Positions 4,968-37,837 of a DNA stretch of 64,000 nucleotides are shown one piece after another. Under the pieces are notes generated by a model. The model was not told the DNA's origin. It saw nothing but the letters and a program-made list of their open reading frames with translations, and did no database searches. Positions within the stretch are counted from its first letter, which is position 1. Every line of letters begins with the position of its first letter. Source of the DNA: Patescibacteria group bacterium. Its GTDB lineage: Bacteria; Patescibacteriota; Patescibacteriia; SG8-24; DYFX01. The stretch is taken from assembly GCA_030583805.1 (NCBI GenBank), contig CP129476.1, forward strand, positions 604,129 through 668,128. The letters run 5' to 3'. The position numbers and the translations under genes are program-made.

Positions 4968-5741
4968 TTAAAATGCGAGTCTTGCCTCCAGTGTAGCACG
5001 CGCGGGGGCGAGATGAACACGCACGAGCGGCAAGCACGTAAGCGGGCGGTCAAGCTGGGATTCGAGCAGCGCCAGGCTGGAACGGATCGTGGCGTGATGA
5101 AGCGGCATCTTTGCCGCGCCTTCCAAAACCGCGAGGATCTCCGCGTGGGCTTGGCCGTCGAGCGTTTCCGCTCCGGCGAGCGCGCGCTCGTCGAGCGGGC
5201 ACAGGCGGCAGGCGGCGGAACCGCGGGCGGGCAGGAAGCGCGAATGCTCGTAGCGCAAATCTTTTCCGCACTCGCAGCACGCTTCAAGCTTCGGATGGTA
5301 GCCGAGATGCGACAGGAGACGCCACACGAAAACGGAGAGACGCGGCATCAGGCGGTCTTCCGGCAGCACGGCCGCGTCGGCGTACCATGATTCGACGAGG
5401 CGCCACAGCTCCTCGTCGCGTTCGCCAAGTTTCACGAAATGATCGAGCGCCTCGGCGACAAACGAAGCGGCGACATAGCGGCGGTCGTCGGCGACGAGCG
5501 GCTCGGGCGAGCGCGCCATGATGGCGCCGCAGAGCGTGTCGAGCTTGCGCCCGCGCGCGAGATGCAAATCCACCAGCGTGAACGGTTCCAAATGCGGGCC
5601 GAGTTTCGAAAGCACTTTGCGCGTGCCGCGGCCGACAGCCAAAAGCTTGCCGCCTTCGCGGGTATAGAGCGTGTACAGGCGGGCGGCGTCGCGCCACGTT
5701 TCGCGGCGCAGCACGATGGCGCGGGCGTGGTAGGTCGACAT
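4968..5741 (-). CDS. recO: DNA repair protein RecO
   Basis: MSTYHARAIVLRR... N-terminal OB fold. C-terminal CxxC...CxxC zinc motif (CCECG...CRLC). Confidence 0.85.
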   Translation of the reverse strand: MSTYHARAIVLRRETWRDAARLYTLYTREGGKLLAVGRGTRKVLSKLGPHLEPFTLVDLHLARGRKLDTLCGAIMARSPEPLVADDRRYVAASFVAEALDHFVKLGERDEELWRLVESWYADAAVLPEDRLMPRLSVFVWRLLSHLGYHPKLEACCECGKDLRYEHSRFLPARGSAACRLCPLDERALAGAETLDGQAHAEILAVLEGAAKMPLHHATIRSSLALLESQLDRPLTCLPLVRVHLAPARATLEARLAF

Positions 5742-6163
5742 TATTCCGTTTTCATCCGATCCAGGAAGGACTGCAGGAACAGGGTCGCGGCGGCAGTATC
5801 ACGATCGAGTCCGGAGGCTTTCCAAGCTTTCTTGCCGCCCATCGCTTCCATATGCGCCTCGATTTCGCGGCTGGAGAGGCGTTCGTCTTCAAGAACGACC
5901 GGCACGTCGAGCGCCTCCTCAAGCTTGGCGGCAAAAGCGCGGGCGATCTCCGTCTGCTCGGTGGAACGGCCGTCTTTCGAAATCGGCAACCCGACGACGA
6001 CGTGGTCGACGCGCTCCGAAACGATGACAGCCTTGATATCTTCAATCAGCGCGGCTTCGCCGTGATGATCGAGCAGTTTGAGCGGCGCGGCAACTCCGGC
6101 GTCGGTCGAACCGATTGCGAGACCGACGCGCTTCGAGCCGTGATCGATGCCGAGCACGTTCAT
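5741..6163 (-). CDS. ruvX: Holliday-junction resolvase-like RuvX/YqgF
   Basis: LGIDHGSKRVGLAIG...GLP, RNase H-like YqgF signature. Its TAA overlaps the recO ATG (TAATG). Confidence 0.85.
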   Translation of the reverse strand: MNVLGIDHGSKRVGLAIGSTDAGVAAPLKLLDHHGEAALIEDIKAVIVSERVDHVVVGLPISKDGRSTEQTEIARAFAAKLEEALDVPVVLEDERLSSREIEAHMEAMGGKKAWKASGLDRDTAAATLFLQSFLDRMKTE

Positions 6164-6164
6164 A

Positions 6165-6941
6165 TCAGATCGGCAGCGGAGTCAAAATTTCGTAGCCGTC
6201 GTCCGTGACGGCGACGGTGACCTCCCAATGCGCGGCCGGCTTCTTGTCGATCGTTTTGATCGTCCATTGGTCGCGGGCGAGGAGCACGTCCCAGCTGCCC
6301 ATCGTGACCATCGGCTCGACGGCCAAGACCATCCCTTTTTTGATCGTGACGGCCGGCATGTCCGGATCGTCATAATTCGGCACGTTCGGCTCTTCATGCA
6401 CGTGGCGACCGACGCCGTGCCCGACCAGCGCGCGCACGACGCCGAAACCGGCCCGCTCGACGACCGGCTGAACGGCTCTTCCGACCTCCCGGATTTTGAC
6501 GCCCGGACGGATGACGTCGATGCCGGCAAGCAAGGATTCTTTCGTAACACGCACGAGTTTCTGCCACGATTCCGGCACTTCGCCGATCGGCAGCGTGACC
6601 GCCATGTCGGTGCAGAGGCCTTTGTAGCGCAGTCCGATATCAAGAGAAAGAAGCATTCCCTCTTCCAATGCGCGGCCGGGATGCGGCGGCGCGTGAACGA
6701 CCTCGTCATTAATCGACGTGCAGACCGTGCCGTTGAACGGCACCGCGCCTCCGGCCTTGTAGCCCTTGAAGGACGGCTCGCCGCCGGCATCGCGCATGCG
6801 TTTTTCGGCGTGCGCGTCGAGCTCGGCCGTCGTGACGCCGGGTTTGGCCATCCGCGCGAGTTCACCCAAAATCTCCGAGAGGAGGCGACCCCCTTCCCGG
6901 AGCTTGGCGATATCTTCGTCTGTGTAGTGCTGGATGGCCAT
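6165..6941 (-). CDS. map: methionine aminopeptidase type I
   Basis: 258 aa. FNGTVCTSINDEVVHAPP, VGHGVGRHVHEEP and other metal-ligand motifs of MetAP-1. Confidence 0.9.
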   Translation of the reverse strand: MAIQHYTDEDIAKLREGGRLLSEILGELARMAKPGVTTAELDAHAEKRMRDAGGEPSFKGYKAGGAVPFNGTVCTSINDEVVHAPPHPGRALEEGMLLSLDIGLRYKGLCTDMAVTLPIGEVPESWQKLVRVTKESLLAGIDVIRPGVKIREVGRAVQPVVERAGFGVVRALVGHGVGRHVHEEPNVPNYDDPDMPAVTIKKGMVLAVEPMVTMGSWDVLLARDQWTIKTIDKKPAAHWEVTVAVTDDGYEILTPLPI

Positions 6942-6948
6942 TGGATCT

Positions 6949-7698
6949 TTAGGAATTCAGAATATACCCGGTAATCGTCAATACCGCAAAGGTCACAACG
7001 GCCAAGGCGAGGAAAATCAGCCCCCACAACTTGAGCCGCCGCGCCCGCGCTTTTCGGTGAAACAGATCCTCCAATTTCAACTCGGCTTCATGGGCGACCT
7101 CGGCGATGCCCTTGCGCGCGTCGACCAGGACGAGCTTCCCTCTCGCGGCGAACCATTCCTTGAGCGGTTCGGTGACTTCGTGATAGTGCCGGAGGCGTTC
7201 TTCGACGAGTTCCGGGGTGTCGTCGCCGCGCCGCACGAGCTCTCCGCCGCACTTGTCGCACGTGCCGTTCGGGCTGTGCGGAGGCTGCGTGATCAGGTTG
7301 TAGTTCGTCTTGCATTTCGAGCAGAGGCGGCGGTACGAAATGCGCTTTTTGGAATCCTCGTCCGGCACTTCCAGATAGAGCACGGCGTCAGGCTTGAAAA
7401 AGCTTTCGCACTTCTTCGCCTGCTCGACCGAACGGGGAAATCCGTCGAGAATCCACCCCTCCGGATGCTTGGAGACCCAGTCCTTCACGAGCGGCATGAT
7501 GATGTCGTCATCAACGAACGCGCCCTTGGCCATTTCGATTTTCGCCGTGTGGCCGCGTTTGGAATCTTCGTTCTGCAACTCACGAAGCAATTCGCCGACC
7601 GAAGCGGTCTGCACGCCCATGATGACGCTCAGGATGTGCGACTGCGTGCCTTTACCGGAGGCCTGCGTTCCGAGCACGGCGACTTTCATCCGCTTCAT
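6949..7698 (-). CDS. adk: adenylate kinase with Zn-LID and an unusual C-terminal hydrophobic tail
   Basis: Start chosen at MKRMKVAVLG (ATG 7698); the upstream part of the track ORF is R-rich and overlaps the neighbouring gene. P-loop GTQASGKGTQ, LID CSKCK...CDKCGG. Last 30 aa RRLKLWGLIFLALAVVTFAVLTITGYILNS look like a TM helix. Confidence 0.85.
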   Translation of the reverse strand: MKRMKVAVLGTQASGKGTQSHILSVIMGVQTASVGELLRELQNEDSKRGHTAKIEMAKGAFVDDDIIMPLVKDWVSKHPEGWILDGFPRSVEQAKKCESFFKPDAVLYLEVPDEDSKKRISYRRLCSKCKTNYNLITQPPHSPNGTCDKCGGELVRRGDDTPELVEERLRHYHEVTEPLKEWFAARGKLVLVDARKGIAEVAHEAELKLEDLFHRKARARRLKLWGLIFLALAVVTFAVLTITGYILNS

Positions 7699-8546
7699 GA
7701 TGGAAAAATGAAGAATGAGACGATGTAGGCAAGGGAAGCGCCGAGCGCGATGGGTGGCAGCGCCGGAATCGGCCTGCGTCGCGGTTGGGCGAGAAACAAC
7801 ATGAACATGAGGGCGAAACCGAGCGAGGCGCCAGCCAGCGTCGCGACCGCGTGCACGGGTCCAGTACGAAGCGCCGCGATGGCGAGCATGACGGGCAGCG
7901 CGACGTCGCCCGTGCCGAGCAGCATGCCGCGCTGTTCCGAAGAAGGCGCGGAGAGCAGCGCTCGCGGCGTAAGCGGCGTGAGCACGAACGCGAAAACGAC
8001 GCCGTGCGAAGAAAGGTCGCGGAACATTTTGACCATGTGCTTCGTGCGGTACACGGCCACAATATCGTAGAAGGAAAGCACGGTCAAAAGCGCGAGCATG
8101 GCGACGGGAGACATCTCGAGCGCCAGGCTCGCGGCGATGCCGGCGATGCCGACGACCAAGACCGCGTTCGCCGCGCCCGCGGCTTTCCACAAGAAGCGCA
8201 GCAGGATCACCGCTGATCCGAGCAGCAGGGCGATTCCCGGAGTGAAAAAGATGTCGGCCAGGAACCAGGTGCCAGCCAGGACCGAGAGCACGAAGAGCGC
8301 TTCAAAGACGATCGGGTTCTTGAAGGCGCGGAGCGCCAAGATGAGCATCGCCGTCGCAAACAAGATCAGCATGAGCACGTACGGCACCGACACCGCCGCC
8401 GAGGGTACATACCCGCCCCGCACGATCGTTTTCGCTCCGGCGGCCAGCGCCAGTCCGCCCGTCACGAAAAAGATGAGTAGCCCGTGGGCAAGAATGCTCC
8501 ACTGCTCCCCCTTCGGCAGCGCGGCGACGGGATGATGGTCGGACAT
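7695..8546 (-). CDS. polytopic membrane protein with presenilin/signal-peptide-peptidase-like YD and GxGD motifs
   Basis: Start chosen at MSDHH (ATG 8546). About 8 predicted TM helices. LSFYDIVAVY (YD) and LLGTGDVALP (GxGD), then PPIALGA (possible PAL-like), in the order seen in A22/presenilin-like intramembrane aspartyl proteases. Stop is adjacent to the adk start. Confidence 0.5.
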   Translation of the reverse strand: MSDHHPVAALPKGEQWSILAHGLLIFFVTGGLALAAGAKTIVRGGYVPSAAVSVPYVLMLILFATAMLILALRAFKNPIVFEALFVLSVLAGTWFLADIFFTPGIALLLGSAVILLRFLWKAAGAANAVLVVGIAGIAASLALEMSPVAMLALLTVLSFYDIVAVYRTKHMVKMFRDLSSHGVVFAFVLTPLTPRALLSAPSSEQRGMLLGTGDVALPVMLAIAALRTGPVHAVATLAGASLGFALMFMLFLAQPRRRPIPALPPIALGASLAYIVSFFIFPS

Positions 8547-8566
8547 ACGCAGGCAGTGTACCAAAA

Positions 8567-8586
8567 ACCCGGCTATTAGGCCGGGT
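8567..8586. terminator. palindromic hairpin CCCGGC-tattag-GCCGGG
   Basis: Perfect 6-bp GC stem between the 8596-8940 gene and the presenilin-like gene. Confidence 0.35.
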
Positions 8587-8595
8587 TCGAGAGGA

Positions 8596-8940
8596 CTACC
8601 GCTTCGTCGATGAGGTCTTGCGGAAGGCGTACACATAGGTCGTTGTACCATCGCCGCCGCCCGACCCGCCGTCGAAGCCTTGATCGAGGAGATAGGTCTC
8701 GGTATCGCGAGCGTGCTGATCGTGACCAGCGTCGTTAAAAATCCACGCACCGTTCTCGGCCACGCCATGATCTTCGAACAGGCGCTTGCGCGGATTGGCA
8801 GCAATCCCGACGTACCAGTTTCCGAGCTCGCAGTCCACGCCGTCGCAGCGAGTGGCGTACTGTTTGATAGCCTCGACTATTTTCCAGTCAGTCATATCGG
8901 TCATTGGGTTATGCGGATAAAAATCGGACAAGGGTTTCAA
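8596..8940 (-). CDS. hypothetical small protein with weak GIY-YIG-like motif
   Basis: 114 aa. NWYVGIAANPRKRLFEDHGV resembles the YIG...RR..H half of GIY-YIG/UPF0213 proteins. Gly-rich tail. Sits in the inserted block beside XRE/ImmA. Confidence 0.4.
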   Translation of the reverse strand: MKPLSDFYPHNPMTDMTDWKIVEAIKQYATRCDGVDCELGNWYVGIAANPRKRLFEDHGVAENGAWIFNDAGHDQHARDTETYLLDQGFDGGSGGGDGTTTYVYAFRKTSSTKR

Positions 8941-9115
8941 ATCGGGCCAGGACGGGGCATAATAATAAAGGGACGCCCCTCGACCTTGTCGTGGCCGGAT
9001 GTTCTACCTGCGTTAGCCTCCTCCAGCCGCAAAACTTGGGGAGGCTTTCGCTATTTTTGAGGCTATCACGACGGGTCACTCCGTACAACCTCAAAAAATT
9101 GAGGTTTATCCACAG

Positions 9116-9144
9116 TTGACGATACCGCCGGCGTAGAGTATCTT
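9116..9144 (+). promoter_or_regulatory. sigma70-like promoter TTGACG-N17-TATCTT, about 7 nt before the XRE ATG (near-leaderless)
   Basis: Hexamers and spacing read directly. No SD between the -10 and the ATG at 9151. Confidence 0.45.
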
Positions 9145-9150
9145 TTCCAC

Positions 9151-9465
9151 ATGGACGAAATGCGCGCGTTCTATCGGCCTCTCGGGGAAGCTCTTCGAAA
9201 TACTCGAATCGAGCTAAATTTAACGCTGGAGGAGACTTTGATTCGAAGCGAGCTTGGTCTAAACAAGTCTTCCCTGGTCAACATAGAAAAGGGACGGCAA
9301 CAGATTTCAATTTTTCAACTTTATAGACTATGTAAAGCCTTGCGGATCTCCCCTACTCATTTTCTTGAACAAGTATTCGAAACCCCTGTTAATCTCGATT
9401 TAGGTATTTTCCTGAGTGACGGATCGGAAAGAAAGAAAATGATTGAACTGATCAACAAGTATTAG
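9151..9465 (+). CDS. XRE-family helix-turn-helix transcriptional regulator
   Basis: 104 aa. LRNTRIELNLTLEETLIRSELGLNKSSLVNIEKGRQQISIFQLYRLCKAL is a Cro/C1-type HTH. Local GC is far lower than the flanks. Confidence 0.75.
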   Translation: MDEMRAFYRPLGEALRNTRIELNLTLEETLIRSELGLNKSSLVNIEKGRQQISIFQLYRLCKALRISPTHFLEQVFETPVNLDLGIFLSDGSERKKMIELINKY

Positions 9466-9466
9466 C

Positions 9467-9994
9467 ATGTTCTACAATCAGACAAATGAGCTGCGAAGCA
9501 GGGCTAGTAAATTAATTGAACTTTTGCCTTTGGAAAAAAGGATACCCGTTGCGGTTGAAGATCTTCCGGGTCTTTTGGGAATCAATGTAGATTATTCTGA
9601 TAGTCTTCCAGACGAAATATCGGGCTTCTTTAAAAGGAACGGAAAGGGAAATACTCCTGTAATTGTGATCAATAGCGCACACCCAAAGGAGCGCGGACGT
9701 TTTACGCTCGCTCATGAGATTGGACATTACCTACTGCACGCGCAAAAGGCAGTCACTATTAATACACTGCATTTCCGGAAAAGAGATAGCAGCCTTTCAC
9801 TTGATCTTGAAGAAATTGAGGCGAATCAATTTGCTGCAGAGCTATTGATGCCCTACCATTTGATGATTTCAGAAATTACCGGTAGCGATTTATTAAATCA
9901 TGATTCCGTGAATAAACTTACAACTAAACTTTCAAAGAAGTTTCTGGTAAGCGAACAGGCGATGACTTTCCGTATTGCCAAGCTTTTTTTCTAA
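9467..9994 (+). CDS. ImmA/IrrE-family zinc metallopeptidase (COG2856-like)
   Basis: 175 aa. HEIGHYLLH HExxH motif plus downstream E...AAELLMP, characteristic of ImmA/IrrE. Its ATG lies 2 nt after the XRE stop. Low GC. Confidence 0.8.
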   Translation: MFYNQTNELRSRASKLIELLPLEKRIPVAVEDLPGLLGINVDYSDSLPDEISGFFKRNGKGNTPVIVINSAHPKERGRFTLAHEIGHYLLHAQKAVTINTLHFRKRDSSLSLDLEEIEANQFAAELLMPYHLMISEITGSDLLNHDSVNKLTTKLSKKFLVSEQAMTFRIAKLFF

Positions 9995-10010
9995 AAATTT
10001 GTACTAAAAG

Positions 10011-10040
10011 AACCGCCAAAGGGCGGCTCTTTTTTTCTTC
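10011..10040 (+). terminator. rho-independent terminator CCGCC-aaag-GGCGG followed by a T7 run
   Basis: Stem-loop plus T-run immediately after the ImmA stop. Confidence 0.55.
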
Positions 10041-10129
10041 ATCCTCGCGTACTGATTATGACATTCGACGCGGTGCGGGTACTGCCCTGGAAACCCGTTG
10101 TTTGGAGGGGTATTACTCGTGCTGCGTCA

Positions 10130-10174: not shown

Positions 10175-11458
10175 TTATTTGATGCTGTCGTAGTCGTACT
10201 CGCGCATCGTCATCTGACTCTCGACCTGCCGGACGATTTCCAGCACGACCGAGACGATGATGAGGAGCGAGGAGCCGCCGACGACCAGGTTCTGCGAGCC
10301 CGTGAGGAACTGCTGAACCAGGAGCGGCAGGATGGCGATCGCGGCGATCGCGGCTGCGCCAGCCAGGGTGATGCGGTTGACCGTATACGTCAGGTAGTCG
10401 GCCGTCGGCTTGCCCGGGCGGATGCCCGGAACGTAGCCGCCCTGCTTCTGCAGGTTTTCCGCGATACGCTCCGGTTTGAAGACGATCGCGGTGTAGAAGT
10501 AGGTGAAGGCGAAGACCAGGACGAAGTACGAAATGCCGTACACGAGCTGGTTTTGCGAAGCGACGAGCACCCAGTTGGCGGCATCTGCGAGCCATGCCGT
10601 TTTGGCACGGACGAAGAACTGCGCGACCATCGGCGGGAACAGGACGATCGAGATCGCGAAGATGATCGGGATCACGCCGGCCATGTTCACGCGAAGCGGC
10701 AGGTGTGTGTTGGCGCCGCCCGCCGTGCCGTTTCCAACTACGCGCTTGGCGTAGGTTACCGGGACGTTGCGCTGGGCTTCCGAGATCACGACGACGCCGG
10801 CGACCGTCAGCACCGCGACCAAGAGGAACGCGATGTAGATCGGCAGCTTGGACGGATCATACGTGAGCAAGGCTTGCTGCGTGAGGCGCGGCAGGCTCGT
10901 GACGATGCCCGCGAAGATCAGGATCGAGATGCCGTTTCCGACTTTCTGCGCGTCGATCAGTTCGCCGAGCCAGACCAAGAACATCGTACCGGCCGTCATC
11001 GCGAGCAGCGTCGTCGCCAATTGAATGGCGTCGAGGCTCGTGATCACGCCCGAGGACTGCTTGAGCAGGCTGATCATGGCGTAGGCCTGAAGCACCGCGA
11101 GCGGCACCGTCAGGTAGCGGGTGTACTGGTTGATCTTGCGCTGGCCTTGTTCGCCTTCCTTTTGAAGGTCTTCAAGGGCGGGAACGATCATGCCCAGGAG
11201 CTGCAGGATGATGGAGGCGGTGATGTACGGACCGACGCCGAGCGACACGAGCGAGAAGTTGTCGAGCGTGCCGCCGGAGAAGACGTTCATCAGGCCGAGC
11301 AGCTGGTTCGACTGGAAGAACGCCCGCAGGTTCGCCAAATCGACACCCGGAATCGGGATGTGCGCGGCGATGCGGAAGACGACCAGAAGCAGCAGCACCT
11401 TAAGCAGACTGGCACGGAGATCCTTCTGTTTCCAGATTTGGGAGAATTTGGCCCACAT
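10175..11458 (-). CDS. secY: preprotein translocase subunit SecY
   Basis: 427 aa, 10 TM helices, conserved SecY N-terminus and plug region. Confidence 0.95.
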
Positions 11459-11489
11459 AGTAGTGGCAGTCTACCGTAATGACGAAGGC

Positions 11490-11927
11490 TTAGGCAATCG
11501 AACCGCCGGCTTTCTCGATCGCGGCTTTGGCGCCGGCCGAGACGTTGAGGCCCTTGAGCGTCAACTTGCGCGACAGCTCGGAGGAACCGACAACTTTGAG
11601 CGGCGCGCGGGTGTCGGTGATGACGCCGCGCTTCGCGAGTTCGGCGCGCGTGACGATGCCGCCCTGCGGAAACGCTTTCACGAGATCGTGAAGGGTGATC
11701 GTGCCGTCCTTGCCGTACTGGCTCTTGAAGCCGCGCAGCTTCGGAATGCGGCGGATGATCATCTTCATGCCCATGAGGCGCAGCTTGTTGCGGCCGCCCG
11801 TGCGAGCTTTCTGACCCTTGGTACCCTTACCGGCGGTTTTACCGCGGCCGGAACCAGGACCGCGGCCGAGCCGGCGGGTCGAGGTCTTTGCGCCTTTGGC
11901 AGGCTTGAGAGAGTGGAGTTTCAGCAT
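11490..11927 (-). CDS. rplO: 50S ribosomal protein L15
   Basis: Gly/Arg-rich N-terminus GRGPGSGRGKTAGKG, L15 fold. Confidence 0.9.
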   Translation of the reverse strand: MLKLHSLKPAKGAKTSTRRLGRGPGSGRGKTAGKGTKGQKARTGGRNKLRLMGMKMIIRRIPKLRGFKSQYGKDGTITLHDLVKAFPQGGIVTRAELAKRGVITDTRAPLKVVGSSELSRKLTLKGLNVSAGAKAAIEKAGGSIA

Positions 11928-11928
11928 A

Positions 11929-12516
11929 TTAGGCGTTGACGACCACTTTCTTCAGGCGAAGCTGCTGGAGCGCGTCCAGGGTCGCTTTCGTGTTGTTGAT
12001 CTTGTTCTTGCCGCCGAGAAGCTTGCCGATGATGTTCGGCACGCCGGCGAGTTCCATCACGACGCGCATGGCGCCGCCGGCTTTGACGCCGGTACCTTTC
12101 GGGGCGGGCTTCATCAGCACCTTGGAAGCGCCGAATTTGCTCTCGACCTGATGCGGGATGGTTTCGTTGACGAGCGGAATGGTCATGAGGCGCTTCTTGG
12201 CCTGCGTGACGGCTTTGTTGACCGCAGCCGAAACGTCGGCAGCCTTGGCGACACCGTAACCGACGCGGCCCTTGTGGTCGCCGATGATGACGGTGGCGCG
12301 GAAGCGCATGCGCTTGCCGCCCTTGGTGACGCGCGTGACGCGGTCAAGAGCGAGAATGCGCTGATCGAATTCCTTCGGCTCTTCCGGACGGCGGCCGCGC
12401 GGCGGACCGCGGCGGTCACCGCCACGGCCTCCACCGAAACCGCCACCGCGCGAGTCGCGGGACGGGGCGGCGCTGGTCGTCGCCGGAGCTGCGGATTTTG
12501 CGTTGGTGTTCTCCAT
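11929..12516 (-). CDS. rpsE: 30S ribosomal protein S5
   Basis: RVTKGGKRMRFRATVIIGD...VPNIIGK; directly follows rplO with no L30 ORF between. Confidence 0.9.
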   Translation of the reverse strand: MENTNAKSAAPATTSAAPSRDSRGGGFGGGRGGDRRGPPRGRRPEEPKEFDQRILALDRVTRVTKGGKRMRFRATVIIGDHKGRVGYGVAKAADVSAAVNKAVTQAKKRLMTIPLVNETIPHQVESKFGASKVLMKPAPKGTGVKAGGAMRVVMELAGVPNIIGKLLGGKNKINNTKATLDALQQLRLKKVVVNA

Positions 12517-22270: not shown

Positions 22271-22309
22271 ACGTATACTAATAAAAAAGTTGACGTGTGT
22301 CGGTGGGGA

Positions 22310-22337
22310 GTGTAGCAGAGGCTCAAAAAGCGGTCAA
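22310..22337 (-). promoter_or_regulatory. sigma70-like promoter TTGACC-N17-TACACT upstream of tuf
   Basis: On the minus strand CTTGACCgctttttgagcctctgcTACACT, about 45 nt upstream of the tuf ATG. Confidence 0.4.
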
Positions 22338-31509: not shown

Positions 31510-31538
31510 GCAGGCAGTATAGCAAAACGGCAAGGGAA

Positions 31539-37411: not shown

Positions 37412-37837
37412 TTATTCCATCAACTTATTGTAGGCGTAGCGGCCGAGTTCCACGACGACGCCCAGGCCGAAACAGGTGACGTAGAGCTGCATGAACGCGA
37501 CAAACGGCAGGAGGTTCATGACGCGGCCGAATTTGGCGAGCACGAGGAACAGGTAGGCGGCCTCGGCCAGGAAAAACCCGACCAGACCGAACCAAAACAG
37601 GAGACGCAACTGCAGGCGCCCGGCGACGAACGGCAAGAAGGCAGCGGTGAAGAAGCACGTGTAGACGAGCGATGATTGCGTGAGGAGCAATCCCCAATCG
37701 AGATCCGGCTGCCAGCGGTATGCCAAGGCCAACCACAAGCCGAGCTTGGCGATCGCGAGCGTCAGGCCGTATTTCCACCAAACGCCTTCAAGAAATTTCG
37801 CTTCGAGCACGAGCACCATATAACGGCAGTATACCAT
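37412..37837 (-). CDS. polytopic membrane hypothetical protein
   Basis: 4-5 predicted TM helices (LGLWLALAYRW, VYTCFFTAAFLPFVAG, LLFWFGLVGFFLAEAAYLFLVL). Start ambiguous between 37819 and 37906. Confidence 0.4.
   Translation of the reverse strand: MVYCRYMVLVLEAKFLEGVWWKYGLTLAIAKLGLWLALAYRWQPDLDWGLLLTQSSLVYTCFFTAAFLPFVAGRLQLRLLFWFGLVGFFLAEAAYLFLVLAKFGRVMNLLPFVAFMQLYVTCFGLGVVVELGRYAYNKLME

Follow-up and report, generated by a model that had tools for sequence, protein, structure and literature searches.

Proteases of the presenilin type are commonly regarded as enzymes of eukaryotes and archaea, and the question raised by the locus described here is whether a bacterium encodes one between secY and adk and, if so, how the gene would be expressed and what its product would cut. 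The locus lies within 64,000 nucleotides of a Patescibacteria group bacterium (contig CP129476.1, positions 604,129 to 668,128; referred to below as the window), which form the ribosomal-protein and secY region of a high-GC genome. A sequence-only reading of the window had proposed that the gene preceding adk (adenylate kinase) encodes an intramembrane protease of the presenilin and signal peptide peptidase (SPP) type. Our analysis shows that the product is very probably a member of the presenilin-type family (A22/PF06550).

The gene encodes a protein of 283 amino acids (Table 1). A 369-residue version starting from TTG 8804 was rejected because homologues start at M-[ST/P]-D; in the longer database calls P0002 and P0004, a conserved upstream DNA motif is translated as GFLVHCLRM. 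A profile search, named as a check by the sequence-only reading, gave PF06550 as the sole Pfam match (46.3 bits versus a gathering score of 23.9; profile positions 35 to 280 of 283), and all 91 homologues that we collected carried this domain. The Pfam title of PF06550, formerly DUF1119, is "Signal-peptide peptidase, presenilin aspartyl protease," and it corresponds to MEROPS A22. There was no Pfam match at an E value of ≤1 to PF01080, PF04258, or the prepilin peptidase family (A24, PF01478), and no transporter family, the alternative that the same reading had raised, was matched. The NCBIfam equivalog model for the archaeal presenilin homologue (PSH), NF041679, scored 51.9 bits (E value of 7.6e-14) and its cut-off of 125 bits was not reached, which makes the protein a relative rather than an orthologue or equivalog of the characterized archaeal PSH. 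Among solved structures, a sequence search matched only PSH of Methanoculleus marisnigri (4hyc; E value of 1.6e-5), with YD aligned on YD, GTGD on GMGD, and PALPP on the equivalent PSH segment.

The motifs expected of the family are SFYDIVAVY at residues 158 to 166 and LLGTGDVALP at residues 209 to 218. Across 35 homologues with identities down to 22%, Y160, D161, G211, G213, D214, P218, A262, L263, and P264 were invariant, and this invariance among such divergent sequences shows that the motifs are not chance occurrences. We built an AlphaFold model on the alignment of these 35 homologues (predicted local distance difference test [pLDDT] score of 88.5; predicted template modeling [pTM] score of 0.87), and it has nine membrane helices (12-42, 54-73, 78-100, 103-119, 123-142, 147-168, 212-225, 230-253, and 263-280). 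The YD helix (147-168) and the GTGD helix (212-225) are consecutive and antiparallel, as had been claimed from the motifs, and are joined by a 43-residue loop. This 6-7 loop contains a short helix (170-180) and two short strands (186-189 and 208-211), which we take to resemble elements of substrate-bound presenilin in gamma-secretase-substrate structures. The P-I-A-L segment to which the sequence-only reading had pointed is present at residues 265 to 268, but the PAL motif of the family is PALP at residues 261 to 264, four residues earlier.

A Foldseek search of the PDB with the model returned PSH first (4y6k, 4hyg, and 4hyc; E value of ~1e-6; TM score of 0.6 to 0.7), followed by PSEN1 and SPPL2a. 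Ranks 1 to 23 were all PSH, PSEN1, or SPPL2a, 17 of them with an E value of ≤0.001; no match to any other PDB protein was significant, and the first unrelated protein stood at rank 24 (E value of 0.11). The dN/dS ratio of the gene against three relatives was 0.11 to 0.13. The profile match, the alignment, the model, the invariant motifs, and dN/dS together argue that the gene is genuine, is under selection, and belongs to the presenilin family. The A22-type arrangement of catalytic aspartates that had been proposed is borne out by PF06550, the PSH alignment, and Foldseek, with a topology that is presenilin- and PSH-like rather than SPP-like.

The orientation of the protein in the membrane was predicted from Lys and Arg residues, counted per loop with the loops taken from the AlphaFold model. 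The side holding the N terminus and loops 2-3, 4-5, 6-7, and 8-9 has 14 of these residues in the window protease and the opposite side has 3; the means over the alignment are 16.0 and 2.6, and the difference points the same way in 35 of 35 sequences. By the positive-inside rule, a bias of this kind would make the N terminus, PALP, and the 6-7 loop cytoplasmic and leave the C terminus outside. The predicted orientation is that of presenilin and PSH (N-in) and the reverse of that of eukaryotic SPP. The substrates of presenilin are of type I, and those of SPP, signal peptides among them, are of type II. The substrates to be expected of an N-in enzyme are helices with their N terminus outside (type I stubs), and we infer that the protease cuts type I-oriented helices rather than signal peptides.

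We surveyed related genomes, one per species, with a pattern-seeded scan, which gave 119 confirmed relatives; the best 79 of these 119 were taken as related loci, and gene order was determined by tblastn with the window proteins. The order L15-secY-protease-adk-map-ruvX-recO was found, as far as the contigs reach, in 21 related Patescibacteria loci. In the close syntenic set (L001 to L012) the protease is 55 to 86% identical to that of the window, and in the distant syntenic set (L014, L020, L022, L024, L026, L028, L031, L041, and L078) it is 33 to 42% identical. The proteases of the secY-adk loci form one clade in a neighbor-joining tree, which is crude and carries no support values. The tree suggests that the gene entered between secY and adk once, in one Patescibacteria lineage, and was inherited from there. 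The insertion that the sequence-only reading had noticed is in this way conserved among related genomes.

Outside the secY-adk clade, the protease gene adjoins neither secY nor adk. About 24 Yanofskybacteria-like loci (L030 to L066) have a membrane protein of ~200 amino acids, the protease, and a metallo-beta-lactamase-type gene, with Mur-ligase-like, LOG-like, and Lon-like genes nearby (names from sequence reading, with no hidden Markov model [HMM] search). In the archaeal loci a large gene lies upstream of the protease, and the conserved neighbors in neither the Yanofskybacteria-like nor the DPANN arrangements gave a hint of a substrate. The 79 related loci come from bacteria of the Candidate Phyla Radiation (CPR) and archaea of the DPANN group (Woesearchaeota, Pacearchaeota, Micrarchaeota, Diapherotrites, and Iainarchaeum), which adds another gene family common to the two groups. 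The Woesearchaeota and Pacearchaeota proteases nest among CPR clades in the tree, a pattern consistent with inter-domain transfer of the gene between CPR and DPANN. The family is small, as judged from a phmmer search of 1.84 billion cluster representatives (705 matches at an E value of ≤1e-3, 323 at ≤1e-10, and 23 at ≤1e-30). The closest protein cluster is 90 to 91% identical to the window protease, and the exact window sequence had no match in public assemblies. The nearest loci are metagenome-assembled genomes (MAGs) labeled Patescibacteria group, Minisyncoccota, or Candidatus Paceibacter, and the host is a Paceibacter-like member of the Patescibacteria (CPR), phylum Minisyncoccota. Several third-party annotation (TPA) MAGs labeled "Gammaproteobacteria" or "Binatia" with the same CPR gene order are probably mislabeled or misbinned.

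The gene had been described as inserted directly into the secY-adk-map block. It does lie between secY and adk, but a 1.6-kb variable stretch with three other open reading frames (ORFs), a terminator hairpin, and a probable promoter of its own come between the end of secY and the protease. One of these reading frames, ORF114, found no match in any of the 79 related loci. The other two lie in a low-GC island (~9100 to 10100; GC content of 0.38 to 0.45 versus ~0.62 around it), and this island, with its helix-turn-helix (HTH) and ImmA genes, has the look of a recent insertion. In related loci, secY and the protease are separated by shorter gaps with different small ORFs, of 70 to 93 amino acids in several; no search with the HTH and ImmA proteins was made there. 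A small ORF beginning MEPMLTQDDLKAIG and differing from ORF114 occupies the gap in several relatives, and from these sequences the gap seems to be a place where variable genes collect.

A hairpin followed by a T-run, of differing sequence, stands at the same place as that of the window in L001 to L005, L007, and L011. After the hairpin comes TTTGGTACACTGCCTGCGT directly before the protease ATG, and the window shares the pattern TTTG[GC]TACACTG-N7-ATG with 10 related loci, including those in which the hairpin is altered or absent. A generic terminator and promoter scan missed both the hairpin and the -10-like element, which were found by folding, cross-locus alignment, and motif enrichment. The window has five copies of TGSTAYACT where 0.20 would be expected, all of them on the coding strand and one 38 nucleotides before tuf (22309-22317), and TAnACTGCC occurs four times against 0.35 expected, each time 6 to 9 nucleotides before the ATG of a long ORF. 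We infer from these patterns an extended -10 promoter that would yield a leaderless or near-leaderless mRNA, and TAnACTGCC looks like a recurring leaderless-type promoter and start architecture. With a terminator and a promoter-like element of its own, the protease gene would be the first cistron of its own transcript and not the tail of the secY message.

The protease stop codon, noted earlier as adjacent to the adk start codon, overlaps it as ATGA in the window, and the 12 close relatives all have this overlap too (13/13). The last sense codon before the overlap is TCA, CCA, GCA, or GTA, so that the amino acid varies but the third-position A is fixed, which argues for use of the overlapping adk ATG. 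The gap between the two genes is 5 to 95 nucleotides in the distant syntenic clade. Translational coupling to adk had also been proposed, and the conserved ATGA makes termination-reinitiation from the protease to adk plausible; however, nothing sets this gene pair apart, because closely packed or overlapping junctions are the norm in the genome, with L15, ruvX, recO, and other window genes equally close or overlapping. Window gene junctions are commonly 0 to 10 nucleotides or overlapping. The absent Shine-Dalgarno sequence before adk was rejected as evidence for coupling, since almost every window gene checked starts without one, including ribosomal protein genes, tuf, and fusA (for example, the starts at 11458, 11927, 12899, 13457, 22270, and 27220).

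The adk product carries a C-terminal extension of ~35 amino acids with a conserved TGYILNS end (window tail sequence ...RRLKLWGLIFLALAVVTFAVLTITGYILNS). Its hydropathy segment was found in the window protein, in 12 of 12 close relatives, and in none of eight distant syntenic relatives, which have an ordinary Adk of 211 to 219 amino acids. This tail would make Adk a tail-anchored membrane protein. The normal Adk of the distant syntenic relatives shows that the protease-adk adjacency is older than the tail. P0076, a 415-residue database protein with PF06550 and ADK domains, was rejected as a natural protease-Adk fusion, since it is out of frame after GTGDVAL; this break points to a frameshift or assembly artifact across the ATGA junction.

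Based on these results, we consider it likely that the gene encodes a partner-independent, di-aspartyl intramembrane protease in the presenilin orientation that is constitutively coexpressed with adk and map and cuts type I helices. The nine membrane helices form the presenilin fold, as homology and modeling show, and D161 of helix 6 and D214 of helix 7 would lie opposite one another close to the cytoplasmic leaflet and activate a water molecule to cut within the membrane helix of the substrate, with PALP (261-264) shaping the active site. One ancestor of the lineage would have fixed the gene between secY and adk. A leaderless transcript from the extended -10 element, with the protease as first cistron, would continue through adk, map, ruvX, and recO, and adk would be started by termination-reinitiation at ATGA; constitutive, housekeeping-level expression would result.

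Several points weigh against this reading. Identity to PSH is only ~20% in the Foldseek comparison, and by its NF041679 score the protein is not a close orthologue of the characterized PSH. Known enzyme assays cover the archaeal PSH alone and no bacterial member of the family (PMC2947513). DNA sequence is the basis for the promoter, for the leaderless start, and for the coupling, and the generic tightness of junctions weakens the argument for protease-adk coupling. The orientation is predicted solely from the positive-inside rule. The link between orientation and substrate was established in eukaryotic presenilin and SPP, and the prokaryotic case is an extrapolation.

If the protease were instead the signal peptide peptidase of the cell, encoded near a Sec translocon gene and clearing leftover signal peptides as eukaryotic SPP does and as has been suggested for archaeal members, the name of PF06550 and the position downstream of secY in 21 loci would be explained, and a review of haloarchaeal annotation counts the family among candidate archaeal signal peptide peptidases (PMC8305020). 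We regard this as unlikely, because the predicted N-in orientation is of the presenilin type whereas eukaryotic SPP is inverted to fit N-in signal peptides. Moreover, a terminator and a promoter-like element of its own set the gene apart from secY, the gene lies away from secY in most other CPR and DPANN genomes, and an M50 site-2-protease homologue is encoded elsewhere in the window. Escherichia coli RseP, of the M50 family, degrades signal peptides and handles type II helices.

Far less probable is that the protease and the tail-anchored Adk form a functional module in which the protease cuts the Adk tail or controls tethering and release. The tail and the strict ATGA overlap do occur together in exactly one sub-clade (13/13 versus 0/8), and such a module, if real, would be a nucleotide-economy switch in nucleotide-scavenging bacteria and would supply the first known physiological substrate of any prokaryotic presenilin homologue. 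However, the tail of Adk is N-in, whereas a presenilin-type enzyme would need the opposite orientation; the two genes were neighbors before the tail arose; their overlap is of a kind common in this genome; and the co-occurrence may reflect the shared ancestry of one sub-clade. A nonprotease membrane channel or scaffold, with the proteolytic function lost or never present, is more improbable still. Presenilins have been proposed as ion-leak channels. The fold contains a pore, and a resemblance between presenilin and ClC transporters is described in PMC4918416, but YD, GxGD, and PAL are invariant down to 22% identity and purifying selection on the gene is strong, so a noncatalytic role is very unlikely.

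The presenilin-oriented protease that we favor is most like PSH (MCMJR1) of M. marisnigri (4HYG, 4HYC, and 4Y6K), a stand-alone PF06550 protein of ~290 amino acids with nine helices and the best structural match of the window protease, with which its YD, GxGD, and PAL-region motifs align. In vitro, PSH needs no partners to cleave type I helices, that of the amyloid precursor protein (APP) among them (PMC2947513, PMC7248309). Unlike PSH, the window protease is bacterial (CPR), scores below the equivalog cut-off at ~20% identity, has a canonical PALP where PSH has a variant, and sits in a secY-adk setting specific to its lineage. It shares with presenilin-1/2, gamma-secretase's catalytic subunit, the fold, the catalytic motifs including PALP, and the predicted N-in, C-out topology with a cytoplasmic 6-7 loop; it differs in having no PF01080 match (at an E value of ≤1) and a much shorter 6-7 loop, the partners nicastrin, APH-1, and PEN-2 are not expected for it, and it shows no sign of autoproteolytic maturation. 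Eukaryotic SPP and SPPL enzymes (A22B; e.g., SPPL2a, 9K93) are, like the window protease, partner-independent GxGD proteases of similar fold, but the window protease has no PF04258 match, its predicted orientation is reversed, and its substrates are expected to differ in orientation.

The usual GxGD proteases of prokaryotes are the A24 enzymes (type IV prepilin peptidase and FlaK), which have no PAL motif. They too are polytopic aspartyl proteases, but of another fold and helix count, and they gave no Pfam or structural match to the window protease. The usual bacterial enzymes that clear membrane helices and signal peptides are RseP/S2P (M50) and SppA (S49), which are of unrelated catalytic types and may overlap in function with the window protease in clearing helices left in the membrane. 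The M50 homologue of the window is a second intramembrane protease of the same genome.

Homologues already carry the public names [quoted passage not shown] at NCBI and "presenilin-like A22 family membrane protease" at JGI, so annotation pipelines recognize the family in Patescibacteria and the assignment itself is not new. We found no literature on presenilin homologues in CPR bacteria in a search that did not extend to the one dedicated phylogenetic study of prokaryotic members. The fixed secY-adk position, the presenilin-like orientation, and the membrane-anchored Adk next door appear to be undescribed in the literature searched, and they are modest yet testable points. A conserved, vertically inherited bacterial clade would offer small, partner-free enzymes for mechanistic work.

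Table 1. Features of the window, with positions counted from its first nucleotide
Feature	Position	Strand	Basis or remark
Presenilin-family (PF06550) intramembrane aspartyl protease gene, 283 amino acids, nine membrane helices	7695..8546	-	ATG at 8546, TGA at 7695-7697; ORF, Pfam, AlphaFold, Foldseek, dN/dS
Codons of Y160-D161, first catalytic Asp motif, helix 6	8064..8069	-	Invariant in 35 homologues; aligned to PSH YD; helix 147-168
Codons of G211-T-G-D214 (GxGD), second catalytic Asp motif, start of helix 7	7905..7916	-	G211, G213, and D214 invariant; aligned to PSH GMGD; strand 208-211 and helix 212-225
Codons of P261-A-L-P264, PAL(P) motif just ahead of helix 9	7755..7766	-	A262, L263, and P264 invariant, P261 nearly; helix 9 is 263-280
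TGGTACACT, extended -10-like promoter element 8 nucleotides upstream of the ATG of the protease gene (possible leaderless start)	8555..8563	-	Conservation and enrichment
GC-rich hairpin and U-run, terminator-like, ending the upstream variable gene	8565..8588	-	RNA fold of -18 kcal/mol, z = -3.2
TAnACTGCC copies, preceding the protease, secY, and two other ORFs	8552-8560, 11465-11473, 31513-31521, 37825-37833	all -	Motif count
ATGA, protease stop TGA (7695-7697) overlapping adk start ATG (7696-7698)	7695..7698	-	Sequence; conserved in L001 to L012
adk, adenylate kinase with zinc-finger lid, 249 amino acids	6949..7698	-	PF00406, 109 bits; TIGR01351, 179.7 bits versus cut-off of 168
C-terminal Adk extension, basic stretch and one hydrophobic membrane helix (predicted tail anchor)	6952..7056	-	Hydropathy, relatives
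map, methionine aminopeptidase, 7 nucleotides downstream of adk	6165..6941	-	PF00557, 159 bits
ruvX (5741-6163) and recO (4968-5741), tightly packed downstream of map	4968..6163	-	ORFs; same order in 20 related loci
secY, upstream anchor of the conserved block	10175..11458	-	PF00344, 348 bits
Window-specific variable region between secY and protease (ORF114 and low-GC island)	8596..10100	.	Pfam, GC, related loci
ORF114	8596-8940	-	Sub-threshold GIY-YIG match alone; family not confident
XRE-type HTH gene in low-GC island	9151-9465	+	Pfam
ImmA/IrrE M78 metallopeptidase gene in low-GC island	9467-9994	+	Pfam
Peptidase_M50 gene (site-2-protease-like, HEFCH motif), 214 amino acids	29615-30259	-	Homology

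Two departures from a familiar gene order were seen in the surrounding ribosomal-protein region. L15 directly follows S5 (11929-12516, named by sequence and position with no HMM), with no uL30 gene between them (junction at 11927-11929); uL30 is reported missing in many CPR bacteria (PMC9297842), and its absence is typical of that group. Farther along, map is followed by ruvX-recO in place of the usual infA-rpmJ-rpsM-rpsK-rpoA.

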